Source: Thermoplasmatales archaeon
Lineage (GTDB): Archaea; Thermoplasmatota; Thermoplasmata; Thermoplasmatales; Thermoplasmataceae
Reading direction: 5' to 3'
Length of the DNA stretch: 64,000 nt
Assembly (NCBI GenBank): GCA_027310185.1
Contig: DAIDBH010000017.1
Span: forward strand, 32,001-96,000
Shown here: in pieces, positions 3,318-24,598 of the stretch
How positions within the stretch are numbered: the first letter of the stretch is position 1
Layout: each line of letters begins with the position of its first letter
The notes under the pieces: model-generated
The model's database searches: none
What the model was told of the DNA's origin: nothing
Seen by the model: only the letters and a program-made list of their open reading frames with translations
Program-made: the position numbers and the translations under genes

Positions 3318-4427
3318 TCAATCTGAATTGTTGAGAACAGAGAATACAAAGTTGTGGAATCTTCTCCTGAATTTCAGTATCCTGATATTTTCCCTTGTTG
3401 GGTATACCCTGTTGCTCAGCACTATTGCATAGGCACCTGTCTTTGGATCTATGCAGATGGATGTCCCGGTAAACCCTGTGTGGCCAAATGCACCATAGTT
3501 GACTGTTTCACCCATGAATGCGTTGTACCCGAATGACGGTCCTGGAACTGGTGGCCTTGGTACCTTGATCATCCACCCAAGGCCGAACATTCCTCCTACA
3601 TTCTGGTTCTGTGGCGTTACCATCATGCTCAATGTTTCCTTCCTGACAATTTTTCCACTTAACAGTGCTTCAGTAAAAATGCCCATGTCATGGGTGTTGC
3701 TGAACAACCCAGCATGCCCACATACGCCGCCGTAAAAATACGACTTCTCATCATGTACCTTTCCCCATACCGGCATTCCTCTTTCTGGATCCTCTTCAGT
3801 TGGTGCAATTTTTTCCTTTGCCACAGATGGATTAAAGAAAGAGCTATTCATTGACAGGGGTGAGAATAACTTCTCCTTTGCCAGAACATCCAGGGGTTTT
3901 CCAGATATCTCCTCAAGAAGGAAGGCGAGAAGTATGAAATTGAGATCACTGTATTCTTCTGTTGCAGGAAGCGTATCATGCTGGTGCATCAATCCAATTG
4001 TTCGCAGGTAATCTTCCTTTGTCTTTCCATATTTGTAAAGGGGGAATGTTGAGATCAATCCAGAAGTGTGTGTGATCAGCTGCCTGACTGTCAGGTTGGA
4101 TATGATCAGATCCTGGTTGTAAAGACCAAGAGAACCAAGGCTGTCCTCCAGGCTAAGCTCTCCCCTTTCAATATATTTCATTACCAGGCTTGCTGTTACC
4201 ACTGGCTTTGTTAGAGATGCCATGTCATAAATGGTATCCTCACTGTATTTGAAGTTAAGTTCTTTTATCTTTCCCTTGAAATATGACGTTTTATATGACC
4301 CCTTTCCTACCAGAACATTCATTCCTGAGGATACGCCTTCGAGATTTTTATCGACGAATTCCTTTAATTCTTCCGTGAAATTATCCATGTTCTTCCCCTT
4401 CATTCGATTTGCCCCCATATTCACCAT
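3318..4427 (-). CDS. Beta-lactamase-family (S12) serine hydrolase, AmiE/YbbE-like MurNAc-L-Ala amidase candidate
   Basis: SxxK (MASLTK), LITHTSG, YSDLNFILL, GKVHDE, GHAGLFS, GHTGFTGT; exact start uncertain (4427, 4418, 4403 or 4388). Confidence 0.75.
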   Translation of the reverse strand: MVNMGANRMKGKNMDNFTEELKEFVDKNLEGVSSGMNVLVGKGSYKTSYFKGKIKELNFKYSEDTIYDMASLTKPVVTASLVMKYIERGELSLEDSLGSLGLYNQDLIISNLTVRQLITHTSGLISTFPLYKYGKTKEDYLRTIGLMHQHDTLPATEEYSDLNFILLAFLLEEISGKPLDVLAKEKLFSPLSMNSSFFNPSVAKEKIAPTEEDPERGMPVWGKVHDEKSYFYGGVCGHAGLFSNTHDMGIFTEALLSGKIVRKETLSMMVTPQNQNVGGMFGLGWMIKVPRPPVPGPSFGYNAFMGETVNYGAFGHTGFTGTSICIDPKTGAYAIVLSNRVYPTRENIRILKFRRRFHNFVFSVLNNSD

Positions 4428-5407
4428 CTCACAACCTTGCTCAGGTTTGATGGATGATCAGGATCCATGCCCATGTTTACGGCCTTGAAATTTGCAAGAA
4501 GCTGGATGTATACAAGCGAGTTGAAGACCTTTTGAAACGGGTTTGTTTCATTGATCTTCAGGACTGCATCCCCATTCCCAATGGTTATGACCTCCCCTGA
4601 TAACGCCTTCAATTTTTCCATTATTTTCCTGTTGGGAAAACTACCCTCAGTCAACCAGATTACAGTTGTATCCCCATCCAGCCTGTGCACCGGGCCGTGA
4701 AAATATTCCCGCGTTGGATATGACTCTGTGACAACGCCAGATGTTTCCTTGAACTTAAGACCGCCTTCAAGAGCAACAGGGTAGCACTTTTCTGAACCGA
4801 GAAAAACAACCTTATTCCTGATTTTTGTAGATACTGAACCTACTTCATCTATAGCTGAAACGATCTTTGCAATGCCATTACATATATCATCCACTTCCTC
4901 ACTTATGTTTTTATCATTCCTGAGCCTGTAGTCTATGAGCATTGAGACTGCTACCTGGACAGCATGGGACTTGGTTGCTGCAATTGATTTTTCCTTTCCA
5001 GCGTGTGTGAGAATTGAATTATCAGATTCCCTGAAGAGCTGACTTTCCCTCTCATTGGTTATTCCTATCACTGTAAAACCGTATTTCTTTGAAAGCTTTT
5101 GGTTGGAGATTGCATCAGTACTCTCTCCTGACTGGCTAAAGATTATGTTCGTTATATCTCCATGAAGGTTCTTTATGAGGTTTTCGCTGTATTCTGATGA
5201 TGTAATGGCCATGGATCTTATGCCATTCTCAAGTAATGTATAATTTAACATTAGTGCAGCGTTATAGCTTGTTCCACTACCTGTTACAAAGACAAATGAT
5301 GATTTCCTTATCTGATCTATTATGGAATCAATTCTGTCAGCGTTCTCATTGATAGTTTTCCTTATTGCCTCTGGCTCTTCCCGGATCTCTTCATACATGA
5401 CAGTCAT
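4421..5407 (-). CDS. Double-SIS GlmS-isomerase-like protein, probable glucosamine-6-phosphate deaminase (NagB-II/GlmD type)
   Basis: MYEEIREEP, GSGTS, SQSGES, E.SIAATKSH, EGGLKFKE, EYFHGP, DPDHPSNLSKVV; no glutaminase domain; start moved to ATG 5407. Confidence 0.8.
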   Translation of the reverse strand: MTVMYEEIREEPEAIRKTINENADRIDSIIDQIRKSSFVFVTGSGTSYNAALMLNYTLLENGIRSMAITSSEYSENLIKNLHGDITNIIFSQSGESTDAISNQKLSKKYGFTVIGITNERESQLFRESDNSILTHAGKEKSIAATKSHAVQVAVSMLIDYRLRNDKNISEEVDDICNGIAKIVSAIDEVGSVSTKIRNKVVFLGSEKCYPVALEGGLKFKETSGVVTESYPTREYFHGPVHRLDGDTTVIWLTEGSFPNRKIMEKLKALSGEVITIGNGDAVLKINETNPFQKVFNSLVYIQLLANFKAVNMGMDPDHPSNLSKVVRW

Positions 5408-5717
5408 ATGGAGTTGTATTGGTATTAACGCTATAAATCTTCTTTTGCTGCCCTTTTGCATATATATCAATTCATGATTCAATTTCTGGAAGTGGTAAAA
5501 AACGCTCATCACAATTTTGTATGAAAAATTGCTATGGGAACCACTTGGATATAATTTTTTACACAATGCTTCAACAACAATGCTTTAATACGAGCGAAAA
5601 CATGTTCAAAAAATTGTAGCATTATGCTTAGAACTGAAACTAAGAATAATACAAATTTGAAAGTTTGGACACCCAAAATAAACACCTTATATACATAGAT
5701 AAACTCACATTAGTAGA

Positions 5718-6878
5718 GTGATTAATCTGGAGAGCAGTATTCTTCTGAAGAGGATCGTTACACCGAATGGATATGTGGATGACTGCTATCTCAATATAAA
5801 AGATGGTGTTATACACAGCATAACGAGAAAGGGAATATTTGGCAATGAGATTATAGATTATTCAAATCTCACTGCAATTCCAGGATTCATAGATATACAC
5901 ACCCATGGGTATTTTGGAATTGATGCAACCTATTCATCAGAGGATGAGATTCACATGTGGGCCTCCATGCTAGCCAGGAAAGGCATTACCTCCTTTATTC
6001 CCACATGCGTCTCACTTCCACTTGAGACCATGATCAAATTCGTAAATAAGATCAAAACAGCATCACTTCATCAAAAGAAAAATGAGGCGAGAATACTGGG
6101 AATGAGAAGCGAGGGACCGTATATCAGTCTGGAGCAGAAAGGGGCACATAACACACTATACCTGAGGAAACCAGATGTTGAAGAACTGAAAAAAATAGTT
6201 CACGCTGCTGGTGATTCCACGTTTCTGATTGATATGGCTCCAGAGCTTGAAAATTTCATGGAATCAATGGAATATCTGCTGGAGAATGACAAGATTGTAT
6301 CCCTTGGACATTCAAATGCCTCATACGTCCAGGCCAGGAAAGGAATTGAATCTGGCGCGAAACTGATGACACACTTTTTTAATGCAATGTCTCCCCTGAA
6401 ACACAGGGAGGTTGGCATGGTTGGGGCCGGTCTTTTATCAGATTCAGTATATCTGGAACTCATAGGAGATATGCATCATGTGTCAAGGGAGGCAATTGAG
6501 ATTCTACTGAAAACAAGAGATATTGATCACATAGTGGGAATTACAGATTCACTTTCCATAGGAGGTACTACCACAGCAGAAGTTAAACTTGGAGGCCTTG
6601 ATGTCATAAAAAAGGATGGTGTTGCATGGATCAAGGATACAAACACCATCGCAGGAAGCATCCTCACAATGGATGCTGCATTCCGGAATCTTAATGAGAT
6701 TATCCCAGATCTCATGAGCCTGACGAAGATTTTTTCGACTAACCCCTCAAGGGTATTGAGCCTGAAAAACCTGGGATATATAGATGCTGGAATGAATGCA
6801 GACCTGAATTTTATTGATGAACATATGAATGTGAAAGCCACGATGATAGGTGGGTATCTTGCTGGTGATGAGAAATGA
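5718..6878 (+). CDS. nagA: N-acetylglucosamine-6-phosphate deacetylase
   Basis: PGFIDIHTHG, EGPY, KGAH, APE, GHS, THFFNAM, ITDS, IAGS. Confidence 0.93.
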   Translation: MINLESSILLKRIVTPNGYVDDCYLNIKDGVIHSITRKGIFGNEIIDYSNLTAIPGFIDIHTHGYFGIDATYSSEDEIHMWASMLARKGITSFIPTCVSLPLETMIKFVNKIKTASLHQKKNEARILGMRSEGPYISLEQKGAHNTLYLRKPDVEELKKIVHAAGDSTFLIDMAPELENFMESMEYLLENDKIVSLGHSNASYVQARKGIESGAKLMTHFFNAMSPLKHREVGMVGAGLLSDSVYLELIGDMHHVSREAIEILLKTRDIDHIVGITDSLSIGGTTTAEVKLGGLDVIKKDGVAWIKDTNTIAGSILTMDAAFRNLNEIIPDLMSLTKIFSTNPSRVLSLKNLGYIDAGMNADLNFIDEHMNVKATMIGGYLAGDEK

Positions 6879-6921: not shown

Positions 6922-7743
6922 ATGACGTCATCCACTGAAGACATAAACCCATTTTCTGTAAACATACATGAGTGGGATGAAGAAACAATTAGCTCATTTA
7001 TTCACCTCTCAGATATAGCTGCCTATGAGGCAGTTGGAAAAGCGATGGATGAAATTTCCAAAGCATGCCGGATGATTCTGGAATCCCTTGAAAAAGGTGG
7101 GAGAGTCATTTACCTTGGTGCAGGTACAAGTGGAAGGGTTGCTGCCCAGGATGTTGTTGAACTGCTTCCAACATACGATCTCGGAACAGATTACTTTGAT
7201 TTCATACTGGCTGGAGGTGTCGGATCACTTGTTAAATCTGTTGAGGGCGCAGAGGATGACAGGAACGGATCAGTGAATGAGTTGAAGCAGAGGAGGCTAA
7301 ATTATAAGGACACTGTTGTTGGAATATCAGCATCAGGCACTACCCCATTCGTCCTTGGTGGCATGGACTACGCAAGAACACTGGGATGCAGGACAATTGG
7401 AATAACAAATAATCATGGCAAGAAGATAGAGAAATCATCTGATCTATGCATTGAACTGCTGACAGGCCCGGAAGTTATTCAGGGTTCAACCAGGATGAAG
7501 GCAGGGACTGCTCAGAAGATGGCACTGAATATAATTTCTACCACTGTAGCGGTAAGGCTTGGAAGAACCTACAGGAATACCATGTCCCACATGGGATCAT
7601 GGTACAATGAAAAACTGAAGAAAAGATCGGTTAACATACTTGTTACCCAGTTTTCAATGACTGAATCTGATGCAGAGAAAATGCTTACTGAAAATAATTA
7701 CAACATTAACAGGTGCATAGAAATTCTGAAGAACAGTAGATAA
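6922..7743 (+). CDS. murQ: N-acetylmuramic acid 6-phosphate etherase
   Basis: TE..N, GAGTSGR, ELLPTY, EGAED, GISASGTTPFV, GPEVIQGSTRMKAGTAQKMALN. Confidence 0.95.
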   Translation: MTSSTEDINPFSVNIHEWDEETISSFIHLSDIAAYEAVGKAMDEISKACRMILESLEKGGRVIYLGAGTSGRVAAQDVVELLPTYDLGTDYFDFILAGGVGSLVKSVEGAEDDRNGSVNELKQRRLNYKDTVVGISASGTTPFVLGGMDYARTLGCRTIGITNNHGKKIEKSSDLCIELLTGPEVIQGSTRMKAGTAQKMALNIISTTVAVRLGRTYRNTMSHMGSWYNEKLKKRSVNILVTQFSMTESDAEKMLTENNYNINRCIEILKNSR

Positions 7744-7795: not shown

Positions 7796-8872
7796 ATGAT
7801 AAAATCAGTAAAATTTAAAAAACTGAATCTTGAGATGAAGAAACCTTTCAAGATTGCTTTGGGCTCAACAGATTTTTATGAGGGATTCCTGGTTTCCATT
7901 GAGACAGATGATGGCATAACAGGATACGGTGAGGCTACCACAACACCATTCATTACAGGAGATACCATGGGCTCAATAGAGAGCGAACTTTCATTCTTCT
8001 CAAAGAAGCTGATCGGAGAGGAAGAATCACCTGAGATTGTAAATACAAAGATGAAGGCGTGGATGAGATCATCCAAGGCAAGCAGGAATGCAATTGACTG
8101 TGCACTCTGGGACATCATAGGAAAGAGGGCAAACATGAACCTTGTAAAATTGCTGGGAAATCATAAGAAATCAATCCTGACTTCATACACCGTTGATCTG
8201 GTTGATGCAGAGACTGCGAAATCACAGGCTAAGGAGCTGTTATCACAGGGTCTCAGGGTTTTCAAGATAAAAGTCGGATCCGGGATTGAGGAAGATTTGA
8301 AAAGAGTAAAGGTTGTGAGGGATGTGGTTGGGGAAGATAAGATGATCTACATAGACTTCAACCAGGCATATAACGTTAAAAATGCTGTCAGGATATCAAG
8401 ATTACTGGAACCTTACAATATAGAATTCATGGAACAACCCATTGCTTCCACAGATATTTCTGGATTGCGTTTTATAAGGGATCATTCTGAAATTCCTGTC
8501 TATGCAGACGAGACCATTTTCACGCCACAGGATGTTTCTGAAGTTCTTAGAAGGGAAGCTGTGGATGGAATAAATATCAAGCTGATGAAATCTGGAGGAA
8601 TCTCAGATGCAATGCAGATGGCAAACACTGCAAAATCATTTGGTGTGCCAGTGATGATAGGATGCATGGTTGAAACGAGGATTGCGAACACTTCTGGCCT
8701 CATAGTTGCACTGAGCAACTCTGCAGTTAAATATGCTGATCTTGACGGATACAATAACATAAAGGAGGACCCTGTTACAGAAGGAATTCTGATGAATAAG
8801 GGAGAAGTGAGCTTATCAGCAAATCTACCTGGAACAGGTATAGCTGTGAGGGAGAAATTCCTTAAAGCATGA
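7796..8872 (+). CDS. ykfB: L-Ala-D/L-Glu dipeptide epimerase (enolase superfamily)
   Basis: PFKIA, KIKVG, DFNQ, EQP, ADE, NIKLMKSGG, GCMVE, DLDG (DxD). Confidence 0.9.
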   Translation: MIKSVKFKKLNLEMKKPFKIALGSTDFYEGFLVSIETDDGITGYGEATTTPFITGDTMGSIESELSFFSKKLIGEEESPEIVNTKMKAWMRSSKASRNAIDCALWDIIGKRANMNLVKLLGNHKKSILTSYTVDLVDAETAKSQAKELLSQGLRVFKIKVGSGIEEDLKRVKVVRDVVGEDKMIYIDFNQAYNVKNAVRISRLLEPYNIEFMEQPIASTDISGLRFIRDHSEIPVYADETIFTPQDVSEVLRREAVDGINIKLMKSGGISDAMQMANTAKSFGVPVMIGCMVETRIANTSGLIVALSNSAVKYADLDGYNNIKEDPVTEGILMNKGEVSLSANLPGTGIAVREKFLKA

Positions 8873-8880: not shown

Positions 8881-10290
8881 TCAACTCATAAATCCAAATG
8901 CCTTCATTATTGCTCCAACTATTACTGAAGGCTTCTTTGAATATGCACTTATATATCCCATATTTTCTGAAATTATTCCAAGATCGCCGTCAAAGCTTGT
9001 GGATATGAATACGCATATGTTTCTTTCTGAAATCTCATTCAGTAACTTCACCCTTGACCTCAGATGCTCGTTCCTCCCTACAAAGATAATCTGTCTTCCT
9101 GCATCTTTCATGTTCTCTAAGAACTCTATGCCATAATGTAATTTCAGATCCAGGTTCAAACTACCAAGATGGGAAGATACAAGATTTGTAGATTTTGTTA
9201 TTTCAGCCACCTGGCTTTCGTCCTTTGAATCCATCAGAACAAGATCAGTTTCCTTCTCGGGATCAAGCATCTTCACTCTTCTTACAATAGGGGAAACAGT
9301 CTCAACGGACTTCAGGAGATATGGGGATGGCCTGTGTGACATTTTCCTGACCGGTTCCATGAATTCAAGGATTCTCTGTTCCTTCTTTTTCAATAATGCA
9401 TTATCTATCTTCTGAATTTCTTCATAGAATTCCATGGAGCCTACAATATCTGCATTCTCCAGTACATCAACCTCATTTTTAATGGAACCCTTGATAATTT
9501 CTGAAACGTCATACCTTCCCTTTATTGCCTTCATGTCCATGGAATCTGAAATTATGAGGTTCTTATAATTGAAATCCTTTCTGAGCAATTTCTGTACTGC
9601 TGATGACAGAGTGGCTGGATAGTTATCATCCAGGGAATTGTAGAGAACATGAGAAAGCATTATGGAACTGACGCCCGCTTCAGCTGCCTTCCTGAATGGA
9701 TATGCATCGTTTATTATGGATTCTATATTCCTCCTATCTTCAGGTAAATCAACGTGGGAATCAACCATTACAGATCCATGACCGGGGAAGTGCTTTGCTG
9801 TTGCCCGAACACCATAGGACTGAATACCCCTGATGAATTCCACGCCATGCTTTGCAATGAGTTCAAGATCAGATCCAAAGGATCTCTCAAGAATTACTGG
9901 ATTGTATCCATTTAGGGTATCCAGAACAGGAGCCAGGTTCCATCTTATTCCCAGGGAGTTTAGCTGGTATCCGGTGAGTCTTCCAACATAATTTGTGAAT
10001 TTAGGATCATCAAGCTTTCCAAGGAACAGGTTGCTCGGGTTGTAATCAATCCATGGAATCCTTACCACGTTTCCCCCTTCCTGATCCACTGCAATGAAAG
10101 GTGCATCAACATTGTTTTCCACAACGTATATGTGGTTTATCTTCTTTATCAGTTCAGCCAGTTCCTTCTCATCCCTGAAATCATTGCTGAACAGCACTAC
10201 AGATAGGGGCAACATCTTCGAGACATACCTCAGGCTTTCTTCCCTCTCTACACCTCTGAGGCCTGTCTGAATGAATAATCCTGATCTCAT
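8881..10290 (-). CDS. nagZ: GH3 beta-N-acetylglucosaminidase
   Basis: DQEGG, APVLD, RSFG, KHFPGHG.4.DSH (NagZ-specific motif), SDSMDMKAI. Confidence 0.92.
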   Translation of the reverse strand: MRSGLFIQTGLRGVEREESLRYVSKMLPLSVVLFSNDFRDEKELAELIKKINHIYVVENNVDAPFIAVDQEGGNVVRIPWIDYNPSNLFLGKLDDPKFTNYVGRLTGYQLNSLGIRWNLAPVLDTLNGYNPVILERSFGSDLELIAKHGVEFIRGIQSYGVRATAKHFPGHGSVMVDSHVDLPEDRRNIESIINDAYPFRKAAEAGVSSIMLSHVLYNSLDDNYPATLSSAVQKLLRKDFNYKNLIISDSMDMKAIKGRYDVSEIIKGSIKNEVDVLENADIVGSMEFYEEIQKIDNALLKKKEQRILEFMEPVRKMSHRPSPYLLKSVETVSPIVRRVKMLDPEKETDLVLMDSKDESQVAEITKSTNLVSSHLGSLNLDLKLHYGIEFLENMKDAGRQIIFVGRNEHLRSRVKLLNEISERNICVFISTSFDGDLGIISENMGYISAYSKKPSVIVGAIMKAFGFMS

Positions 10291-10333: not shown

Positions 10334-11977
10334 CTATTTTGATTGATTATCCATGACCTGAATTTCAACAGATGATGGAAACTGATTTCCATGGAAAACG
10401 TTCTGTTCTGCAATTTTATAATTTCCAGTATCATACTGCTTTCCTGTTAGATTCTGGTTCCTGGCATATTTTGGAAAGGCACTGGATGATATTTCAATCC
10501 TCATTCTGTGATCTTCCCTTATTTCATGTAGCATATACCACATGTCAATGTCTATCCTGATGATTTTTCCAGGTTCATATGGGATTTCCTCAAATGGGCC
10601 ATTTCTATACCTCAATCTTGTTATACCGTCCTGAAGCCTCTGGGCATATCCATCAGGATGCACATCCAGAATCTTCATGGTAAAGTCGGTATCCTCACAA
10701 TCTGAGGATACATATATTCTTCCTGTGATTCTTCCGGCAATTATCAATCCACCTTCCATTTTCCCCGAAGTGTAGACCAGGATATCCTTCCTCTTTTCTA
10801 TTTCGGAATAATCATCCGGCCCCCCAATCTGGGCAAATCCCTCACCAGACAGGTATGGAACTGGATTCATTGGATCATATGAGAACTGATCATTTCTCAT
10901 TCCATACGAAGGTATATCCAAACTCAGGCTCCCATCACCCAGTATGCTTGATGCACTTTTTTCTGATGACAGGTACATATTAACGATTTTACAGTTTTTG
11001 AGTGGCCATTCATTGGATTTTATCCACCTGTTAGGTCCCATGGCAAAAACCCTGACTCTATCCTCATCCCTCACATTCCTCTTTTCAAGGATTGTGTTGA
11101 TCCATTCAGATTCTATTTCAACAAGATCTAGCTTAGAGTCCTTTCCAAAATCAATGTGATCATTCTTTATGTCCCTGTTAACTGCATGTCCCCATGGACC
11201 TATTATGAGACTCTGATTATTCCTTGAAAATTCACTTCTGGAATTTTTTCTCATATTCTCATAATTTATGAATGTGCCTATCTGCTCATCATCGTACCAT
11301 CCTGAAATATGCATTACCGGAAGATCAAGGGAATTCATCTTTCCCTGGTAAAATAGAGGTTTCCAGAATTCACTTTCCGGCCTGTTTATGAAATACTGCC
11401 TCCAGAATGGGATATCAACTCCAATTTTTTCAGGCATGGAAATTAATGGTAAATGTCTGTAGACTTCTTCCCAGTCCACGCTGTTGATATTCTGCATTCC
11501 TCTTCCCCTGAGTGAGAACAGCCATGAGAGGTTCATGGGTGAAGTGTAAACTGATGGATTCTCAACAAAGGGATCTGATGGTGGGACAATACTTATCATT
11601 CCCCTAAGATGTTCAGGTTTCCTCAATGCAGTGAGCCACTGGATCCTTCCTGAATAGGATGCTCCCCATGTGATCACGTTCCCGTTGGACCATGATTTGG
11701 TGGCGAATTCTTCAATGAGCCTGGAACCATCTTCTGCCTCTGAAAAATATGGCGTGAATGTTCCATCTGATTCTCCCCTTCCCCTCACGTCATTTGCAAT
11801 GAATACGAAACCCATTTTGTTGAATTCCATTGCTGTGTTTAGCAACTCGTCTGAGTTCTTTCCGTATGGAGTCCTGAAAAGTATTACCGTGTTCCTTCCC
11901 TTTTCTACTGGTAGGTAGATATCTGAGGACAATTCGATTCCGTCCCGCATTTTAGTTCTTTCATCATAAATAATCAT
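10334..11977 (-). CDS. CocE/NonD-family serine hydrolase (S15-like)
   Basis: MRDG..L..DIY.P, RTPY, DVRGRGESDG, GASYSG, GWYD, GPWGH, SSAFP. Confidence 0.88.
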   Translation of the reverse strand: MIIYDERTKMRDGIELSSDIYLPVEKGRNTVILFRTPYGKNSDELLNTAMEFNKMGFVFIANDVRGRGESDGTFTPYFSEAEDGSRLIEEFATKSWSNGNVITWGASYSGRIQWLTALRKPEHLRGMISIVPPSDPFVENPSVYTSPMNLSWLFSLRGRGMQNINSVDWEEVYRHLPLISMPEKIGVDIPFWRQYFINRPESEFWKPLFYQGKMNSLDLPVMHISGWYDDEQIGTFINYENMRKNSRSEFSRNNQSLIIGPWGHAVNRDIKNDHIDFGKDSKLDLVEIESEWINTILEKRNVRDEDRVRVFAMGPNRWIKSNEWPLKNCKIVNMYLSSEKSASSILGDGSLSLDIPSYGMRNDQFSYDPMNPVPYLSGEGFAQIGGPDDYSEIEKRKDILVYTSGKMEGGLIIAGRITGRIYVSSDCEDTDFTMKILDVHPDGYAQRLQDGITRLRYRNGPFEEIPYEPGKIIRIDIDMWYMLHEIREDHRMRIEISSSAFPKYARNQNLTGKQYDTGNYKIAEQNVFHGNQFPSSVEIQVMDNQSK

Positions 11978-13239: not shown

Positions 13240-13298
13240 GGCTGCATATTGGTAGGAAGAATTTAAATTATAATGTTTGTTGTTTCCCTCGCAAACAA

Positions 13299-14206: not shown

Positions 14207-14737
14207 ATGAATGTTGTAAATGTGATAATTTTGCTGGGATGCCGATCATCTGGATGCGCCCCCACTGAAGAGCTTAAGGGTAGGGCAGGAGAAGCAGTGA
14301 ATTTATATAGGTCCCTCAATGGAGAAGCAATTATAATCCCATCAGGCGGAGTCACGGAGAAGGGATGCGGAATATCAGAAGCTGAATTTATGTTAAGAGA
14401 ACTTTTGAAATATGGCATCCCCAGAGAAAAGATAATTATGGAGGAAAAAGCTGGAACCACTATCGGAAACGCATTCTTTTCAAAATTGCTTTTGGAGAGA
14501 AATGGAATCGAGTACGAGAAGATTCATATTATCAGTTCATGCTATCACATGAAGAGATCAGAGTATATTTTCAAAAATATATTTTCTATAGATGATATTG
14601 GAACTGGTTATTGCTTTGGAGAGTCAATGGAAAGAGAAAGTGAAACAGAAAAACTCCGTAGGGACTCCATGATTTTGAAAAATATCAGAGGAAGATCTAC
14701 AGAAGAGGTGGAGAATAATTTCAGGGAATATCTCTGA
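14207..14737 (+). CDS. YdcF/ElyC/SanA (DUF218) family protein
   Basis: IILLG, IIPSGG, SEAEFM, EEKAGTTIGNA, SS.YHMKRS. Confidence 0.85.
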   Translation: MNVVNVIILLGCRSSGCAPTEELKGRAGEAVNLYRSLNGEAIIIPSGGVTEKGCGISEAEFMLRELLKYGIPREKIIMEEKAGTTIGNAFFSKLLLERNGIEYEKIHIISSCYHMKRSEYIFKNIFSIDDIGTGYCFGESMERESETEKLRRDSMILKNIRGRSTEEVENNFREYL

Positions 14738-17253: not shown

Positions 17254-17302
17254 TGGAAGTATAATGCTTCCTGAATGAATAATTATTCTCATTAATGCTC
17301 AG

Positions 17303-17579: not shown

Positions 17580-18680
17580 ATGCCATTTAATCTTGGAATT
17601 GAAAATCTTGCAAGGAATAACGTGAATGAGAATGCAGCCCTATTAACAAATGCAAGCGGAGTCATTCAGCATTTAGAGCAGAATGTTGATTTCCTGCTGA
17701 AGAAGGGCTTTAAAATAAAGAAGATATTTACAGCAGAGCATGGATTTTATGGAACGCTTAATGATGGGGATGATGTCAAAAATGAGACCTATAACGGAAT
17801 CGGTGTCATATCAATATATTCTGCAGATAGAAAGTCCATAAAACCAGAAGAACTTGAAGATGTGGATACAGTCGTATATGACCTGCAGGATGCCGGAACA
17901 AGACCATATACATTCATCTCTTCCCTTAAAAATCTGTTGATTACCGCCTCAGAGCTTGGAAAGAAAGTTGTTGTGTGTGATCGGCCAAATCCGCTTTCCA
18001 ATGTTATAGAAGGACCTGTTTTGAAAAGAGAATTCGTTTCATTTGTTGGTGCCGATGAATTCCCACTGAGATACGGGATGACCATTGGAGAATTAGCTCA
18101 ATTCATGAATAGAAACATAAGTTCAGATCTAAGTATATCAAAGATGACGGATTATGATCCTTCTAGATATTATGATTATCATTTGAAATATTATGTCCCA
18201 CCGTCACTGAATCTCAATTCGCTGGATTCAATGTTCAATTTTTCCGGGATGGTATTGCTGGAAGCAGCTAAAGTAAGTGTTGGCAGAGGGACTCCCTATC
18301 CATTCCTGCAGTTCGGTATGGAAAATCTACCAGACCTGAAACCAGATGAATTCGAAGGTGTGATTCTGCGGAAGACCTCATTTATCTCATTGCTTGATCC
18401 TCTTAAAGATAAGAAACTCAAAGGGTATTTTATCCATATAAAGGATAGAAAACTTTACAGCAGCATAAGGATGGTTGCTTCCGTCATGAAGAAGATCTAT
18501 GAGATGGACAGGACCCTGATCAATTTCAAAAAGTTGAATCTCAATTACGGTTCTGATGAGATGTCAAAATGGCTGGAGAGAAATGGAACAGTGCTGGAAC
18601 TTTATGAGCAGATGGATTCAGAATGTGCTGGGTTCTTGAATACCAGAAAAGATTACGCACTTTACAAGTCACCTTCTTAA
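17580..18680 (+). CDS. namZ: Exo-beta-N-acetylmuramidase (DUF1343/GH171), divergent copy 2
   Basis: LLTN, AEHG, DLQDAGTRPYTFI, DRPNP, GMTIGELA, PPSLN, LLE...SVGRGT. Confidence 0.88.
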   Translation: MPFNLGIENLARNNVNENAALLTNASGVIQHLEQNVDFLLKKGFKIKKIFTAEHGFYGTLNDGDDVKNETYNGIGVISIYSADRKSIKPEELEDVDTVVYDLQDAGTRPYTFISSLKNLLITASELGKKVVVCDRPNPLSNVIEGPVLKREFVSFVGADEFPLRYGMTIGELAQFMNRNISSDLSISKMTDYDPSRYYDYHLKYYVPPSLNLNSLDSMFNFSGMVLLEAAKVSVGRGTPYPFLQFGMENLPDLKPDEFEGVILRKTSFISLLDPLKDKKLKGYFIHIKDRKLYSSIRMVASVMKKIYEMDRTLINFKKLNLNYGSDEMSKWLERNGTVLELYEQMDSECAGFLNTRKDYALYKSPS

Positions 18681-18730: not shown

Positions 18731-19702
18731 TCACTCAACCATGGATTCCATAGGTTCAATATATGGTTCTGATTCTGTTATTCTGACCCTCAGATTGAGT
18801 GGGATTAACATCTGTTCATTTCCATGCCCAAAAGGTGCCATTGCAAGGGAGGGTTTTGCATTCTTTACCATGTATTCCTTAATCACATCTTCAATAGATG
18901 GCTTCCCTTCTCCCGAGGTTGATCTATTTTTGAATTCGCCGAATACAAATCCTGAGAGCTGGTTGATAGTGCCATTAAGCGTCATTATATCCAGATATCT
19001 TTCTATATCAACCGATCTTTCATTCGTGTCCTCGCAGAATAGAACCTTTCCATTGAATTCTGGCATATATGGCGTGCCAGTTAGGGATGAAAAGACGGAC
19101 ATGTTGGTTCCCATGGACCTCCCCTGTGCACTTCCTTCAACCACATATTTTACCAGTCTTTTTATGTAAGGCTTCAGATCTGACAGTTCTCCCCTGAAAA
19201 TCCTGAACATTATTTCCAGTTTTTCTCCACGAAATTCTTCTGTATCCGTATCTGGCATTGGACCATGGAATGTAACAAGTCCGGAAAGCTTATTTATGGC
19301 CATATGAAGATTTGTTATATCACTGTAGCCCATGAATATCTTGGGGTGCTCACGTATAACATCAAAGTCAAGAAACGGTAAAGTCTGTCTTGCACCATGG
19401 CCTCCTCTTGCACAGAATATTGCCTTTACATTATCGTCCGTAAAGGCATCCATTAATTCCTTAGCCCTTAATTCAGGGTTTGCAGAATGGTAATTATCCT
19501 GGTTAAGCTTTTTCACGTTGATGCCGTAAGTGACTCTATAACCAAGTTTAGTTATTTCTTCTGCAGATTGACTTAGAGGTATAATTTCAGGGTAACTTGA
19601 GGGAGCGATTATTCTTATTTCTTCACCTATTTTCAGTCTAGATGGTTTTATTACCTCTTTCTGTTCCTTATAATCTTCATAGCTTCCTTTCATTTTATTC
19701 AA
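18731..19702 (-). CDS. ldcA: LD-carboxypeptidase (S66, LdcA/YkfA-like)
   Basis: IIAPSS, ARGGHG, GYSDIT (catalytic Ser), FHGPM, LFCED, FGH. Confidence 0.9.
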   Translation of the reverse strand: MNKMKGSYEDYKEQKEVIKPSRLKIGEEIRIIAPSSYPEIIPLSQSAEEITKLGYRVTYGINVKKLNQDNYHSANPELRAKELMDAFTDDNVKAIFCARGGHGARQTLPFLDFDVIREHPKIFMGYSDITNLHMAINKLSGLVTFHGPMPDTDTEEFRGEKLEIMFRIFRGELSDLKPYIKRLVKYVVEGSAQGRSMGTNMSVFSSLTGTPYMPEFNGKVLFCEDTNERSVDIERYLDIMTLNGTINQLSGFVFGEFKNRSTSGEGKPSIEDVIKEYMVKNAKPSLAMAPFGHGNEQMLIPLNLRVRITESEPYIEPMESMVE

Positions 19703-19939: not shown

Positions 19940-22900
19940 TTAGTTTTTAGGTATTTTCGGTTTTCTAATGAGGAAAACACCAGCTACAGCTACGATTGCT
20001 ATAACAGCAACCACAACACCAACCACGACGTAAAGATAGGTACTTGATGTTGGCTTAACAACCTTCTCATTTACAGTGTAATTGACATATGTATATGCTG
20101 GAAGTATAGAACTGCCTGATGTGCTTGCCATTGCAACAATGCTTTCGTTGACGTCCACATATGTGCCCTTGCCAGTTGTTGAATTCCCAACTTTGAATGA
20201 GAATACCGCCACACCTGCGCTATTTGTTGTCAAGTTTAACCCGCTACTACCTACCGTTATTCCCTTCAGATCATAGGATGTTATATTCACGAAAGCTCCT
20301 GAAACCGGAGTCCCGTTCTTAGTAACTGTGAAAGTTATTTCACCTTTCTGACCTGTAGTGTAATTAGTGCTTCCTATTGAATATGACATTACAAGTGATG
20401 GGTTCATGACGAAGACGTTGTTGTATGTATATCCCGCACCTGTTTGGTTCTGATTTCCTACAGATGCAACTGCAGTGATGTTTATCTGCTGGTAATATAG
20501 ATACATTGGATTTCCTGATGAACCAATTGTTGTCATTAGTTTGGAAAGTGCTCTGGGAATTGTGAATGTGAAGTTTGTACTGTTTCCTGTAGATGTGTTG
20601 AAAGTGAATGCGCTGCTACTTATGCTTCCCGGTATTCCAGTCATTACTACAGTTATATTTGCATCTGTTACATTTGCTCCCGTATTGTTTTGAACAGTAT
20701 ACATGATAGTACCACTATTGCCTGCATAGAGATGAGAGTTCCCTGAATATTTAGAAGTGACTGACAGACTATTTTTCTCGTTTGTATTCAAGAGTTCTAT
20801 ATTAAGGTAAGTTGATGTTGTAGTTGTGTGAATATCCTTTGCTGGTGGGTTGACTGTTGCAGAAATGTTAACCTCTTCGTTAGGTAAATTGATAATCTGA
20901 CCACTTGATGATGTTGTTTGTAGAAGCAGGTTGAGATTATTGAATACCTGATACTTCCAGATTGCCTGTCCAGCTGAATTTGTGATGAGCTGGTTTGAAG
21001 TTGTGTTAATCAGACCTCTAGCTATGGATGAGACAGATATACTTACAATTGCCCCCTGCACTGGCATTCCTGTGGTCTTGTTAATAACGGTATAGGTTAT
21101 GCTTCCAGAGTTCCCTTCCTTTTCAACTAGAGCACCACTTAATTTCTGCTGCACCTCAATGTTGTACTTGTAGCTTACAGATGATGTTATCTTTGCCTTG
21201 TATACTTCTGTCAGGGTAAAGTAAAGACTGAAAAGGCTGTTGGAGTTTTCTGTTGTAAAGTTTGAGAATTGGCCTGTCTGGAATGCTTCCATATTAGTGA
21301 AATATCCAAGGTTTATGAGAGTTGCTTCTTCATTGATTAATGTCTGAATTTCCTTTGATAAATGAACTGCCTGTTGTATGGTCTCAGCCTGCAGTAATTC
21401 ATTTGATAGATTTGTTAGAAGTGAAGTAACCTGCTGACCTGAAAGATGCTTTCCGTTAAAGTTCAAAGAGGTATATGGTCCGAGCGTGCAACCAACACTG
21501 AAATAGGCTGGAGCATCATTAATGAATAGTGCACAAAGGTCGGCTGGATCGCCAGATTCTGTCCCCTGTCCATATATTGCCATCTGGTAGAAGTTTCCCT
21601 TCCCAGTTACGGTTTGGTATATATTGTCAAACATGGTTGAATATGCCTCTTCCTTTATGATCGTCTTGATCCCAAGAGCTGCGAATGATGTTGACATCTC
21701 ATTAGCAATTTCAACTGCACAGGGAGTTTCACTTCCAGGTGCGATCTGGAGTTCTATGCTTACCTGCTTTCCATTGTAGGTCAATGTGCCTGATTGATTG
21801 CTCATTCCAGGAATACTCTTGATCATGGAACTTGCCTTTTGCATATTATAGGTATATTGAGGACTAGTTGAATTATACCAAAGTACATTACATGGTGGTA
21901 CAGTGTTCGACGAAGGTGTTAAAAGTCCGTCATAGACTGTACCATCAATGGTTTGATAGGGTGTTGCATAACTCAAAGCCTGCCTGAAAGTGGTGATATT
22001 CAATGGAGTTTCGTTCTCATTGATTCTCACAGCACAGAATACCTGAGATGGCTTTACGTAAATATATGCTCCCGGTGTTCCTTTAACCAGTGAAAGGAAA
22101 GACGGAGATACTGGAAGGAGATCTAGCTGTCCCTTTGTGAAAGCGGCAACCATTGAAGACTGCGAAGAATAGTATGGCTGATAGAACTCATATATTTTTG
22201 GAGAGTATTGTCTCAAGCCACTGCTTTTGTTTGCATATTGAGCGAAGAAGTAAGGATTGACATAGTATTTATTATATTGATTTGGCAAGATTCCTCCTTC
22301 CGGCATTCCGTATCCATTGTTTACCATGAAAGGCCCATCCCCTACCAATCCCGGAGCAGAACCTGTTGCAGTGTTCCAGCCAAGGTCCCATCCATAATAA
22401 CCATTTCCTGATGAAATGCCAGGAGTATAGTTGAAAAGTCCTTTTACACTTGTAAAGTCATGGTGAACCCATATGTGGTAAGGAAGTATGTAAGATTCAA
22501 GAGAACTTGAACGTATTAACAGTGTTGGCTTCGGTACGAATATCTTGACAGAAAGGTTTCCATTTGGAATTACATTGACTACTCCTGGCCACCCTCCCAG
22601 TGCAGACTCCATTCTCCAGCTAAGAACAACATCAGCAGACTGCAGATAATACTTTTTCATAACGGTTGGTGAATAGCTTGTATATGTGTGTGTGAAAGGT
22701 GCTCCTGTTGCATTGTTATAATCAACCTTGTTCGAGAAGGTGTATGTTTGTGAAGCATTTGCTTTTGACCAGTCCGTCCACTGGACATACGGTCTCAGAT
22801 TTACCGTGTATACATATGAGTAATTTACCATGCTACCTGTTTCAATGTCAAAGGTTTTATTGTTTGACGTGACGTGAGTTAATGTATAGTTTGTTGCCAG

Positions 22901-23254
22901 CCATGGTTCAATCTGTCCATTAGGCATTGTTTTGTATAAACTTCCATATATTAACTGATAGATAAACAAATCACCAAATGTTATACCTGTGAATGTATTC
23001 AAATCGCCTATAGTATAGTCTAAACCACAGGTGAACGTTCCATTGGTATAACCGGGCTCTTGCATGGTAGTTGTTGGCATTTGCCACGGAGTTGCTGATG
23101 AACTTTCAGGCTGCGCACCCAACTGACTAATCTGACTAATACCAGTATTTGCTGAGGATGTATTAATTGGTACTGATGCTCCAAATACAAAAAATGCGGA
23201 GCCTACCATTAACAATACCATAAATACTGATAAAACAATTTTCTTATTTATCAT
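19940..23254 (-). CDS. Large membrane-anchored ABC solute-binding protein, family 5 (Opp/Dpp-like), with C-terminal beta-rich extension
   Basis: N-terminal signal/TM, IEPWLA, LRP.VQWTD, ADVVLSW, VGDGPF, FRQALSYA; many NxS/T sequons; TNSAG repeats; C-terminal TM + basic tail. Confidence 0.85.
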   Translation of the reverse strand: MINKKIVLSVFMVLLMVGSAFFVFGASVPINTSSANTGISQISQLGAQPESSSATPWQMPTTTMQEPGYTNGTFTCGLDYTIGDLNTFTGITFGDLFIYQLIYGSLYKTMPNGQIEPWLATNYTLTHVTSNNKTFDIETGSMVNYSYVYTVNLRPYVQWTDWSKANASQTYTFSNKVDYNNATGAPFTHTYTSYSPTVMKKYYLQSADVVLSWRMESALGGWPGVVNVIPNGNLSVKIFVPKPTLLIRSSSLESYILPYHIWVHHDFTSVKGLFNYTPGISSGNGYYGWDLGWNTATGSAPGLVGDGPFMVNNGYGMPEGGILPNQYNKYYVNPYFFAQYANKSSGLRQYSPKIYEFYQPYYSSQSSMVAAFTKGQLDLLPVSPSFLSLVKGTPGAYIYVKPSQVFCAVRINENETPLNITTFRQALSYATPYQTIDGTVYDGLLTPSSNTVPPCNVLWYNSTSPQYTYNMQKASSMIKSIPGMSNQSGTLTYNGKQVSIELQIAPGSETPCAVEIANEMSTSFAALGIKTIIKEEAYSTMFDNIYQTVTGKGNFYQMAIYGQGTESGDPADLCALFINDAPAYFSVGCTLGPYTSLNFNGKHLSGQQVTSLLTNLSNELLQAETIQQAVHLSKEIQTLINEEATLINLGYFTNMEAFQTGQFSNFTTENSNSLFSLYFTLTEVYKAKITSSVSYKYNIEVQQKLSGALVEKEGNSGSITYTVINKTTGMPVQGAIVSISVSSIARGLINTTSNQLITNSAGQAIWKYQVFNNLNLLLQTTSSSGQIINLPNEEVNISATVNPPAKDIHTTTTSTYLNIELLNTNEKNSLSVTSKYSGNSHLYAGNSGTIMYTVQNNTGANVTDANITVVMTGIPGSISSSAFTFNTSTGNSTNFTFTIPRALSKLMTTIGSSGNPMYLYYQQINITAVASVGNQNQTGAGYTYNNVFVMNPSLVMSYSIGSTNYTTGQKGEITFTVTKNGTPVSGAFVNITSYDLKGITVGSSGLNLTTNSAGVAVFSFKVGNSTTGKGTYVDVNESIVAMASTSGSSILPAYTYVNYTVNEKVVKPTSSTYLYVVVGVVVAVIAIVAVAGVFLIRKPKIPKN

Positions 23255-23488
23255 TCGACTGGAATCTAATTACATATTAATAAACATTTTCATGAATTTT
23301 TTTACAACATAAAAATTTTAATAGGCGTAAGCAATTCGGTTTTTATCGTTAATTTATAAATTCTATGTGTTGATTGCCAGTTTCAAATTATTAAACTTTT
23401 TACAAAATAATAACTAATTATTTTATACATTCCATCGTATTCCTTATTCAATTTCAAAAATTTAATTATTTGATTCCCATTTCTTTTT

Positions 23489-24598
23489 ATGGAAATACAT
23501 AAAAATAATTTGATTTCTTACTGTTTTATGGATTCGGATGGTAATGAACTCCAGTCAATTAATGGAGACTTGCCACTGATACCTGCTTCAAATATGAAAT
23601 TGGTAACCTCCCTATGTGCACTGGAATTACTTGGACCTGATTATGTGTTTACCACAAAGTTTTATTCGGCGAAAAAAGATCTGCACATTTCTGGAGATCC
23701 GACTTTCTTTTTGAACAGAAGTGAATGCAAGAATATAATGAAGGAATTAGACACAAAAAATCCAGACCCTATTCATTTTGAAATGCCGAGAATTGACAGG
23801 GAGTTTTACAACAGTGACTGGGTTTATGGTGATTCAAAATATAGTTATCAACCAAGAATTTCAAATTTTTTCGTTGATGAGAATTGCGAGATTAAAAAGG
23901 ATTTCAAATTCGATGATGCTGATTTCAACTATATTCATCAGAATGAACATTTATTTCTGCCTGTTAAAAATCCTGATAGGAATTTAGTAGAGGCATTTTC
24001 AGGCCAGAAAGATGTGAAAATAATGAGGCCCAGTGCGTCTATAGGTAACAATTTTCAAAAAATAAGTGTTCATAAGGCAAATATAAGGGATGTTCTGAGA
24101 CATATTCTTTATGAAAGCTGTAATTTTTATGCTGAAGTCATATTCAAGTATCTTTCCAGTTCAGAGAAATCAAAGGGAACATGGAAAGACTCGTCTAGTC
24201 TGATTATGGATTATCTTTCTAAGATAAGAGGATCTGAAAATGTAAGAATTACAGATGGGTCTGGACTTAGCAGGGAGAATTATCTAACTACTGGATTTCT
24301 CTCTAACATGCTTCTGTATGCAAGGAGAAATTTTGGTAAAAGTTTTATAGAATTGATGCCGACCTCAGGATATGGAACACTCAGGAAACGTCTAGATTCG
24401 TTGAAGGATTTTGGGATTTATGCAAAAACCGGAACCCTATCCGGTGTTTCTGCTCTCAGTGGTTATATTAGTTCATTGGACGTTACATTCTCAATAATTA
24501 TCAATAACAGCCTAGATGATGGAGCAATTCGCCAGAAAGAAATAGATGGAATTTTATCAGAGTTTATCAATGGGTATAAGAAAAAACATTATTCCTGA
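23489..24598 (+). CDS. dacB: D-Ala-D-Ala carboxypeptidase/endopeptidase (S13, PBP4-like)
   Basis: PASNMK (SxxK), ESCN (SxN), DGSGLSR, AKTGTL (KTG), LSGY; no evident signal peptide. Confidence 0.9.
   Translation: MEIHKNNLISYCFMDSDGNELQSINGDLPLIPASNMKLVTSLCALELLGPDYVFTTKFYSAKKDLHISGDPTFFLNRSECKNIMKELDTKNPDPIHFEMPRIDREFYNSDWVYGDSKYSYQPRISNFFVDENCEIKKDFKFDDADFNYIHQNEHLFLPVKNPDRNLVEAFSGQKDVKIMRPSASIGNNFQKISVHKANIRDVLRHILYESCNFYAEVIFKYLSSSEKSKGTWKDSSSLIMDYLSKIRGSENVRITDGSGLSRENYLTTGFLSNMLLYARRNFGKSFIELMPTSGYGTLRKRLDSLKDFGIYAKTGTLSGVSALSGYISSLDVTFSIIINNSLDDGAIRQKEIDGILSEFINGYKKKHYS

Follow-up and report, generated by a model that had tools for sequence, protein, structure and literature searches.

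A candidate pathway for dismantling bacterial peptidoglycan stem peptides in a wall-less Thermoplasmatales archaeon

What would an archaeon that makes no peptidoglycan do with a compact set of enzymes whose families map onto the stem peptide of that very polymer? The question is raised by a 64-kb window (the whole stretch of DNA that was analysed, 64,000 nucleotides (nt), G000:C1:32001-96000) on a 286-kb contig of the Thermoplasmatales genome G000 (1.88 Mb, 99.5% complete). Positions 3318-24598 of the window hold 17 intact open reading frames (ORFs) of at least 170 amino acids (aa), including all five enzymes that an initial annotation had named beforehand, namely an S12, an SH3b-NlpC/P60, an S66 and an S13 hydrolase and a dipeptide epimerase, each found as an intact ORF with Pfam support. 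They belong to a cluster of about 23 kb that also encodes NagZ, two NamZ, MurQ, NagA, a NagB-II-like deaminase, a sugar kinase, LysA and a family-5 binding protein; the five enzymes, the GH3 protein and both NamZ pass the Pfam cut-offs, and MurQ, NagA and LysA pass the NCBIfam equivalog cut-offs. We consider it quite likely that the span encodes the peptide half of a cytoplasmic peptidoglycan-eating pathway in an archaeon without peptidoglycan of its own, which probably feeds on the walls of neighbouring bacteria. The genes on which this argument builds are the following (GlcNAc, N-acetylglucosamine; MurNAc, N-acetylmuramic acid; mDAP, meso-diaminopimelate; P, phosphate):

2268..3287, minus strand: BadF/BcrA-type sugar kinase, candidate GlcNAc/MurNAc kinase with a putative substrate (PF01869, 118 bits)
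3318..4427, minus strand: S12 beta-lactamase-fold serine hydrolase, candidate MurNAc-L-Ala amidase, AmiE-like (PF00144, 155.5 bits)
4421..5407, minus strand: double-SIS protein, candidate glucosamine-6-P deaminase of the NagB-II type (PF01380)
5718..6878, plus strand: NagA, GlcNAc-6-P deacetylase (TIGR00221, 282.7 bits against a cut-off of 225.65, passed)
6922..7743, plus strand: MurQ, MurNAc-6-P etherase (NF003915, 308.2 bits against a cut-off of 168, passed)
7796..8872, plus strand: enolase-superfamily dipeptide epimerase, candidate L-Ala-D/L-Glu epimerase (MR_MLE_N and MR_MLE_C)
8881..10290, minus strand: GH3 beta-N-acetylglucosaminidase, NagZ-like, with a C-terminal extension (PF00933, 177 bits)
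12028..13302, minus strand: NamZ paralogue 1, GH171 exo-beta-N-acetylmuramidase family, with an insertion in the N-terminal domain (PF07075 and PF20732, match in two stretches)
13299..13988, minus strand: SH3b and NlpC/P60 cysteine peptidase, candidate gamma-D-Glu-mDAP endopeptidase, YkfC/AvPCP-like (PF00877 and PF18348)
14777..16069, minus strand: LysA, diaminopimelate decarboxylase, sole copy in the genome (TIGR01048, 329.8 bits against a cut-off of 297.9, passed)
17580..18680, plus strand: NamZ paralogue 2 (PF07075 and PF20732)
18731..19702, minus strand: S66 peptidase, candidate LD-carboxypeptidase for mDAP-D-Ala (PF02016 and PF17676)
19940..23254, minus strand: 1104-aa family-5 solute-binding protein, candidate muropeptide/peptide receptor (PF00496)
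23489..24598, plus strand: short (369 aa) S13/PBP4-family serine peptidase, candidate DD-carboxypeptidase (PF02113, TIGR00666)

The host, an acid-loving archaeon of the Thermoplasmatales, has no wall and makes no peptidoglycan of its own. The contig of the cluster also bears archaeal core genes (S6e, eIF2-gamma and a Kae1-Bud32 fusion) together with the Thermoplasma-type families TA0956 and DUF3198, and the nearest named relatives of the cluster proteins are Thermoplasmatales: the closest record for NamZ2 is a metagenome-assembled genome of a Thermoplasmatales archaeon (L013, 83% identity, the single locus returned by the genome-contig search), while the closest named S13 homologue, at 71%, belongs to Cuniculiplasma divulgatum. 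In the G000 genome the PBP transpeptidase family PF00905 has no match and the Mur-ligase-like family PF08245 a single one, and the available portions of two reports describe cells of related archaea as bounded by a membrane only (PMC5155288, PMC3750248). As no wall-building enzyme set was found, the pathway would be catabolic and cannot be wall recycling, and as the host builds no wall, its peptidoglycan substrate, if any, would be bacterial in origin. The host was absent from the initial annotation, and it shifts the meaning of the locus from recycling to feeding.

To trace the set among relatives, G000 was compared with 40 related genomes (41 in total). NamZ occurs in eight of the 41, S12 in the same eight, and S13 in these eight with an additional weak, stop-containing match in G035. 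NlpC/P60 is found in nine genomes, being the same eight and G035, exactly those in which the epimerase matches at 54% identity or more; at E <= 1e-30 the epimerase count rises to 17/41, the other eight genomes reaching only 43% identity or less. LysA, single-copy in G000, exceeds its cut-off in 11/41, namely in the eight, G035, G018 and G021. In wider samples, NamZ was detected in 16/401 genomes of the class and 9/401 of the phylum, concentrated in few families.

The genes are not only inherited together, they also lie together. Alignment of the window proteins on fetched stretches from 16 other records, among which kin are not independent, located S12, NlpC/P60 and the epimerase in the cluster in 11/16 each, S13 in 10/16, LysA in 8/16 and S66 in 3/16, and S13 adjoins LysA in G016, G006, G017, G034 and G035. 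Gene order is different in almost every lineage, the guanine-plus-cytosine (GC) content ranges from 0.29 to 0.53, the lineages are only 35-60% identical, and at least five cluster lineages are roughly equidistant (S12 45-49% identical between them). The gene set has thus been kept together through repeated rearrangement, more than expected by chance. Furthermore, the cluster proteins of G016, a member of the same genus, and of G017, from another genus, are equally distant from those of G000 (approximately 47% and 48% identity), whereas eIF2-gamma tracks kinship (86% and 69%), which argues that the set is old in the order and was not simply passed on vertically. In G035, a relative from another family, an 8.3-kb contig (L022, G035:C56:1-8297) has the peptide genes only, those for LysA, NlpC/P60, the epimerase and a highly divergent S13-like protein, and neither NamZ nor S12 was found in this genome; the peptide module may hence exist alone.

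The catalytic motifs of the five enzymes, described as intact at the outset, hold up in alignments to solved structures and to archaeal orthologues (six S12, eight S13, four S66, nine NlpC/P60 and eight epimerase sequences, G000 included): they are invariant in orthologues that are only 35-60% identical, apart from small differences in two divergent copies. For S12 the motifs are SLTK, YSD and HTG, invariant in the six aligned sequences. The protein belongs to a subfamily (121 sequences) in which SLTK is present in 110/121, GHTGFTG in 119/121 and YSD in approximately 114/121, with PTE, VHDE and GHAGLF also conserved and YSD replacing the YxN motif. Its best solved relative is an alkaline D-peptidase (1.4e-13), and a look-up in the ESM Atlas returned generic beta-lactamase clusters only.

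The assignment of S12 turns on gene context. A scan of metagenome contigs with an alignment of distant S12 members yielded 588 confirmed relatives, and the following counts refer to the best 80 of these, which are 30-40% identical to the window protein at a GC content of 0.37-0.75. A NamZ homologue flanks S12 in 54/80 loci; in 43 of the 80 it is the immediate downstream neighbour and shares the strand, a downstream sequence of 1200 nt or more being present in 67. MurQ (21 loci), a BadF-type kinase (13) and GH3 (10) are also found as flanking genes, so that any such sugar gene stands beside S12 in 58/80; NlpC/P60, the epimerase, S66 and S13 were found in none of the 80. Moreover, neither Amidase_2 nor Amidase_3 nor AnmK was found in the G000 genome, leaving S12 as the sole candidate for the MurNAc-L-Ala bond. 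The Bacillus subtilis amiE gene shares the operon murQ-murR-murP-amiE-nagZ-namZ with nagZ, namZ and murQ, and its NagZ, AmiE and NamZ digest peptidoglycan from the non-reducing end, according to the portion of the source available (PMC8054146). The context of S12 matches this partnership, which argues against a generic esterase, the possibility that the initial annotation had held out as fatal to its assignment. A role of S12 as MurNAc-L-Ala amidase, judged from gene context, is therefore likely. The S12-NamZ pairing also offers a testable function for a large unnamed branch of the beta-lactamase family.

The NlpC/P60 protein (PF00877, 93.8 bits) has one SH3b domain ahead of the catalytic domain (PF18348, 27 bits against 25.8, residues 11-55), which we take to be the architecture of the 235-aa protein 2hbw as well. 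Its best match in the PDB is B. cereus YkfC (3h41, 3.8e-21), with 2hbw aligning to its C-terminus. The cysteine of DCSGF, the histidine of GHV and the histidine of IHA align with 3h41; the cysteine and the first histidine are invariant in the nine orthologues, and IHA reads IHS in one. The epimerase is, judged from family and catalytic residues, a dipeptide epimerase, with an Enterococcus dipeptide epimerase (3jva, 3.5e-63) and YkfB (1jpm, 1.4e-54) as its best solved matches. KIK, DFNQ, EQP, ADE, KLMK and DLDG align to both structures and are conserved in the eight orthologues, presumably representing the KxK motif, the metal ligands D/E/D, the second catalytic lysine and the C-terminal DxD.

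The S13 protein passes TIGR00666 (113.2 bits against a cut-off of 107.8) and aligns to the R39 DD-peptidase 2wke (1e-18), and with SNMK, SCN and KTG it presents the SxxK, SxN and KTG motifs of PBP4/R39-type enzymes. Residues A33, S34, N35, K37, S210, N212, K313, T314 and G315 are invariant in 36 sequences, and the motifs are conserved in the eight aligned archaeal orthologues except for the divergent G035 copy (SNTK, SEN). It is, however, not of the full-length, three-domain, exported type, comprising 369 aa without a signal peptide as compared with about 430-480 aa, and its PF02113 match is in two pieces that leave out the middle of the profile. An S13 domain measures approximately 430 aa in the accessible part of a previous description (PMC6403190). 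The clade consists of 26 protein clusters of 342-395 aa, the named ones all from Thermoplasmata, and is split from the ordinary PBP4s of 430-550 aa by a drop from 201 to 141 bits, with at most about 30% identity to the full-length forms. The orthologues L015:14464-15567 (in G012) and L013:15901-17004 stop approximately four codons before the window copy, at aligned residue 365, and the in-frame stop that had been flagged is thus no pseudogene mark. S13 may plausibly trim pentapeptide stems as a cytoplasmic DD-carboxypeptidase. This retains the D-Ala-D-Ala half of the role first proposed, backed by the motifs and TIGR00666, while the other half, cleavage of 4-3 cross-links, is unlikely: the enzyme is short and without an export signal for reaching the intact wall, and cleavage inside the cell would need an import of dimers that is unsupported.

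The sugar branch gives these peptidases their setting. The kinase, whose best NCBIfam match is NagK_SO3507 (1.1e-24, below cut-off), adjoins S12 in G012, G015, G268 and G136, and GH3 (NF003740 NagZ, 3.5e-47, below cut-off) is in the cluster in most lineages. The double-SIS protein matches NagB_SO3506 (7.7e-35) and the C-terminal half of GlmS (3e-55). Its longest ORF extends to 5566, and alignments begin at residues 54-59, with Met54 or Met57 (5407 or 5398) as the likely start; an RNA-library contig ends near it, at 5399. This contig end points to the later start (Met57, approximately 5398), and perhaps likewise for the esterase described below. DapF was not found in the genome, and conversion of wall mDAP to lysine is the favoured role for LysA, a biosynthetic one being possible. 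With the five enzymes co-inherited with MurNAc and GlcNAc catabolic genes and the only LysA, the breakdown of DAP-type stems proposed from the five alone appears, if anything, understated.

Where would the enzymes act? Export was judged by a hydropathy scan of the longest possible ORFs, in which the binding protein alone displays a signal-like segment at the N-terminus and a membrane span at the C-terminus (peaks at residues 6 and 1076), while every enzyme is low (maximum for S12, KD12 1.06). As no other protein of the set carries an export signal, cytoplasmic action of the enzymes on imported muropeptides is expected; bacterial members of the S12 subfamily are likewise without signal peptides. 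The binding protein has its C-terminal membrane anchor in place of a lipobox, the archaeal style of such proteins. A paralogue (47% identical, 877 aa) on contig C18 heads a complete Opp-type operon (G000:C18:229000-242000, L108), which further encodes a pair of permeases (751 aa for one of them) and a fused double ATPase. The orphan E. coli protein MppA works with OppBCDF, and the orphan binding protein of the cluster similarly appears to borrow an Opp permease encoded elsewhere. The C18 operon is followed by a large penicillin-amidase-family gene (PF01804) that runs off the fetched stretch.

Aggregated, these features suggest the following route. Muropeptides and stem peptides shed by neighbouring bacteria would be bound outside by the membrane-anchored family-5 protein and handed to the Opp-type permease. 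Inside the cell, NagZ would take off GlcNAc and S12 would split the peptide from MurNAc, as AmiE does, with the two NamZ enzymes freeing terminal MurNAc; the BadF-type kinase, MurQ, NagA and the NagB-II-like deaminase may then bring the sugars to fructose-6-phosphate. The stem would be trimmed by S13 (D-Ala-D-Ala) and S66 (mDAP-D-Ala), after which the SH3b-NlpC/P60 enzyme may cleave the trimmed stem at gamma-D-Glu-mDAP. Finally, LysA would convert mDAP to lysine, and the epimerase would turn L-Ala-D-Glu into L-Ala-L-Glu for an ordinary dipeptidase.

Parts of this route are familiar from bacteria. YkfA of B. subtilis is an LD-carboxypeptidase, YkfB an epimerase and YkfC an endopeptidase, and the murQ operon and ykfABCD of that organism have the GH3 NagZ, an S12-fold partner of NamZ, GH171 NamZ, MurQ, S66, dipeptide epimerase and SH3b-NlpC/P60 families in common with the present locus. 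In contrast to B. subtilis, the host here is an archaeon without peptidoglycan and its NagZ, AmiE-like and NamZ enzymes have no export signal where the bacterial ones are secreted; the MurP phosphotransferase system and MurR give way to a BadF-type kinase and an ATP-binding cassette (ABC) binding protein; sugar and peptide genes, LysA and S13 are merged in one locus; and S12 is of the distinct YSD subfamily. The dismantling of imported muropeptides in the cytoplasm resembles E. coli recycling (AmpG or Opp-MppA, NagZ, AmpD, LdcA, MpaA, YcjG, PepD, AnmK, MurQ, NagA), as does the order of LD-carboxypeptidase, gamma-D-Glu-mDAP cut and Ala-Glu epimerisation, and the available part of PMC10622912 lists Opp as a transporter for recycling. 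AmpD (Amidase_2) and AnmK were, however, not found here, NlpC/P60 replaces the M14 enzyme MpaA, LysA is added, and there is no Mpl or Mur ligase set for re-use, pointing to catabolism rather than recycling. Tannerella forsythia (NamZ1, NamZ2, MurK, MurQ) likewise takes up the wall sugar of neighbours, using two NamZ, a kinase and an etherase (10.1101/2021.12.02.470905, PMC5790795, both as far as accessible); there the sugar builds the organism's own wall, whereas here no wall exists and the peptide stem is predicted to be consumed as well.

Transcripts from the locus appear to be represented in sequencing data. DNA of 7796-17292 was found in 20 runs from six studies, on mine drainage, mine tailings and one microbial fuel cell metagenome, the last being possibly the source sample. 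X9, an RNA library from this last sample, covers 30/30 bins of 3318-23317 with assembled contigs at 100% identity and no mismatch, DNA possibly being present in this one sample. The X9 contigs break in intergenic gaps near start codons (5399/5726, 11889/12058, 13970/14204, 15987/16111, 17241/17439, 19683/19892 and 23235), one contig covering 19892-23235 with the binding protein, and the contigs of a DNA run break at other places. This pattern fits transcription in several short units, possibly leaderless or near-leaderless. The ends at 5399, 5726, 13970, 17241 and 23235 lie approximately 10-50 nt from start codons and carry adaptor sequence. Contig depth in X9 is 1122 for the binding protein and 16-171 for the others, as compared with a flat 29-83 in DNA run X7, a weak hint at best, as depth cannot rank genes; some bins have no coverage in runs X19 and X20, from which nothing follows. 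The Pfam scan showed no regulator gene in the cluster. When five divergent intergenic regions were compared for a common operator, a single TATA-like 8-mer, shared by 4/5, was all that emerged, and we claim no regulon motif.

A number of observations weigh against the pathway as drawn, beginning with S66. Its GYSD, ED and GHG motifs (with serine, glutamate and histidine presumably catalytic) align to 4e5s and are conserved in the four in-cluster orthologues, and yet the best solved matches are MccF-like, BA_5613 (4e5s, 1.8e-36) followed by Lmo1638. Against LdcA-type chains the values are 6.4e-31 for 6uuk, a 'muramoyltetrapeptide carboxypeptidase', and approximately 1e-13 for the Pseudomonas and E. 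coli LdcA (1zl0/5z01), and NF008424 LdcA scores 103 bits against a cut-off of 378. In favour of an LD-carboxypeptidase, the HMMER alignment is continuous to 6uuk, 1zl0 and 5z01 and split against MccF-type chains, and the inter-domain linker is approximately 20 residues shorter than in the MccF type (query 150-186 versus 4e5s 137-193). The gene is present in 22/41 genomes, many without the cluster, and hence is not co-inherited with the pathway; in-cluster copies occur only in G000, G011, G012, L013, G015, G016 and G006 (those of G015 and G006 adjoin NamZ on a different contig), and it is absent from the cluster in G017, G034 and all eight further stretches. A paralogue (51% identical, G000:C6:70729-71670, L027:8712-9677) overlaps an M20-like gene, close to genes for a histidine ammonia-lyase and several Ta1207-family proteins; paralogues of this type are widespread among relatives that have no cluster. 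The predicted assignment of S66 as the mDAP-D-Ala enzyme thus keeps its alignment and loses its consistency: an LD-carboxypeptidase is somewhat likelier than an MccF-like enzyme, the second possibility that the initial annotation had set against itself and for which the evidence points both ways, and S66 is the weakest and least consistent of the five.

S12 lacks the canonical second motif YxN, reading YSD where 4y7p has Y-S-N, and its best NCBIfam match, PBP4B (NF002968, 6.6e-33), fails with 114.2 bits against a cut-off of 385. The epimerase scores below the equivalog cut-offs (NF041118, 225 versus 500 bits; NF011708, 127 versus 343), and the Enterococcus enzyme 3jva reportedly prefers hydrophobic dipeptides. 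At the position of the Glu-binding Arg24 of YkfB, all eight orthologues have glycine (ALGST versus ALRTV), R24 being one of the specificity residues, along with E51 and D296, that the accessible text of PMC3965090 names for some dipeptide epimerases. While family and catalytic residues speak for the role first assigned to it, the L-Ala-D-Glu specificity rests, given this replacement, on the strict linkage to the NlpC/P60 gene. The epimerase, moreover, cuts nothing, and the Ala-Glu bond still needs a dipeptidase: L-Ala-L-Glu is without an assigned hydrolase, with an S15 protein and an M20 peptidase (29177-30277) as candidates only. With an epimerase that cuts no bond, an ambiguous S66 and a short S13, the original formula of one enzyme for each bond was too neat, even as its families and motifs stand. 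Furthermore, the cluster encodes no permease; no alanine racemase was found in the genome, leaving D-Ala without an assigned route; without AnmK, 1,6-anhydro-muropeptides would not be fully usable; DapB_N matches exist in the genome; and the RNA evidence stems from contigs of one sample, possibly containing DNA. All substrates and the order of steps are predicted, as are the enzyme activities throughout the clade.

Several of these points would suit a general set for scavenging amino sugars and D-peptides that is not directed at peptidoglycan, with the GlcNAc genes serving for chitin or glycoprotein debris and the peptidases for D-amino-acid or gamma-linked peptides such as lipopeptides and poly-gamma-glutamate: the epimerase is without the YkfB arginine, S12, S66, NagZ and the kinase stay below their NCBIfam equivalog cut-offs, and S15 has an esterase as its nearest solved match. 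Such a set is nevertheless unlikely, as MurQ exceeds its cut-off and is accompanied by two NamZ (GH171), both families known only for MurNAc chemistry in the portion of PMC8054146 available, and as LysA, a meso-diaminopimelate enzyme, travels with S13 and NlpC/P60. Less probable still is that some of the five do other jobs and leave the peptide pathway incomplete, with S66 detoxifying aminoacyl-nucleotide antibiotics in the manner of MccF and S12 or S13 hydrolysing beta-lactams or xenobiotics. The MccF-like best matches of S66, its wide occurrence outside the cluster and the short, divergent S13 are in line with this, but the alignment of S66 is continuous to LdcA-type chains and split against MccF-type ones, S12 and S13 are strictly co-inherited with NamZ, and, with no peptidoglycan-synthesis enzymes found, there is no beta-lactam target to protect.

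We consider it very improbable that the enzymes act outside the cell via an unrecognised export route, with only monomers being imported. B. subtilis NagZ, AmiE and NamZ are indeed secreted (PMC8054146, in the part available) and the cluster is without a muropeptide permease, but no enzyme has an N-terminal hydrophobic segment even in the longest ORF while the binding protein does, bacterial S12-subfamily members start without one too, and a wall-less cell would presumably have no periplasm to hold secreted enzymes. Bacterial DNA mis-assembled or mis-binned into an archaeal genome, which the bacterial character of all the enzyme families might bring to mind, was considered and rejected, with a residual probability close to nil, as the cluster shares its 286-kb contig with archaeal ribosomal and translation genes, is syntenic in the single-contig genomes of the relatives G012 and G268, matches the genome in GC (0.393 versus 0.395) and encodes a binding protein anchored in the archaeal style without a lipobox. 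No foreign compositional signature was seen in the window or the cluster, and no tRNA gene lies within the 64-kb window, hence no integration-site marker.

Returning to peptidoglycan feeding as the preferred reading, a more specific form of it is reasonably probable: a subset of wall-less acid-mine Thermoplasmatales would be dedicated peptidoglycan consumers, importing muropeptides, dismantling these fully in the cytoplasm with long-resident, archaea-adapted enzymes (among them a PBP4-type peptidase that is truncated and signal-less, and an S12 amidase of the YSD type) and drawing lysine from wall diaminopimelate via an otherwise orphan LysA. Peptidoglycan, rich in D-amino acids, constitutes a large carbon and nitrogen pool, and the organisms that consume it are, to our knowledge, thought of as bacteria. 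Among the matches listed in the literature on Thermoplasmatales or Cuniculiplasma and peptidoglycan catabolism, the pathway is not described in archaea; the stem 'muram' is absent from the main texts of PMC3750248, PMC5155288, PMC10354927 and PMC6336744, as is 'peptidoglycan' or 'murein', whichever of the two was searched. The available part of the NamZ paper lists Bacteroidetes, Firmicutes, Actinobacteria and gamma-proteobacteria with archaea unmentioned (PMC8054146), and these archaea have been called scavengers of complex organic compounds from neighbours (PMC6336744, as far as accessible). If correct, the reading would establish a pathway of peptidoglycan catabolism in archaea and tie them directly, as consumers, to bacterial walls; it would also provide a concrete food source for the 'scavenger' archaea of acid mine biofilms, an explanation of the orphan LysA as a route from wall diaminopimelate to lysine, and, for biochemistry, versions of NamZ, an AmiE-like amidase and a PBP4-like peptidase that come from acid habitats and work in the cytoplasm, their bacterial counterparts being extracytoplasmic.

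The remaining genes within and around the cluster are listed below:

1025-2182: flavin mononucleotide (FMN)-dependent alpha-hydroxy-acid dehydrogenase, adjoining the kinase and syntenic in G012
10334..11977, minus strand: S15 CocE/NonD-family hydrolase, candidate dipeptidase or esterase step (TIGR00976, 295 bits, above cut-off)
14207..14737, plus strand: DUF218 protein (PF02698)
16243..17292, minus strand: Abhydrolase_3 esterase, hormone-sensitive-lipase type (PF07859, 160 bits)
24676..25584, minus strand: GNAT-domain protein (PF13508 and PF00583)
25807..26577, plus strand: GATase_4-like protein, class-II amidotransferase/Ntn-hydrolase fold (PF13230, 2e-5, 24.1 bits against a cut-off of 23)
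26815-29131: amidase-signature enzyme (PF01425, 289 bits) and a 283-aa protein without a family match, conserved only in the closest relatives G012 and L013
29177-32675: M20 peptidase (29177-30277), OSBS/N-succinylamino-acid-racemase-type enzyme and GNAT protein side by side, syntenic in G012

Among these, the S15 hydrolase, with cocaine esterase as its best PDB match (2e-59), is clustered in G012, G015, G016, G006, G017 and G398, DUF218 is present in the clusters of G012, G015, G016, G017, G268, G136 and G061, and the Abhydrolase_3 esterase, for which de-O-acetylation or the like would be a speculative role, joins the cluster only in G016 and the G000-type lineage. The GNAT protein at 24676..25584 accompanies the clusters of G012, G017, G034, G136 and G076, with weak Nat-type PDB matches only (approximately 5e-4). 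The GATase_4-like protein adjoins S13 in G268 and G383 and returned no match in a PDB search; Met-Cys at residues 13-14 may be its true start, and it could be a gamma-glutamyl or amide hydrolase. The OSBS-type enzyme scores 370 bits with TIGR01928, above cut-off, and a menaquinone role is doubtful as MenD was not found above cut-off. The trio of M20, racemase and GNAT recalls the conversion of D- to L-amino acids via N-succinyl intermediates in Geobacillus, and could handle D-Ala or D-Glu from stems. On the opposite side of the cluster, the dehydrogenase at 1025-2182 might oxidise the lactate freed by MurQ; enzymes of its kind act on L-2-hydroxy acids and MurQ frees D-lactate, which speaks against such a role. 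Further upstream, G000:C1:1-32000 (L025, L026) forms a wider carbohydrate-uptake neighbourhood, in which two sugar ABC systems are accompanied by genes for GH31, alpha-amylase and GH1 enzymes, two TrmB regulators, another BadF-type kinase and ETF/ETF-QO.

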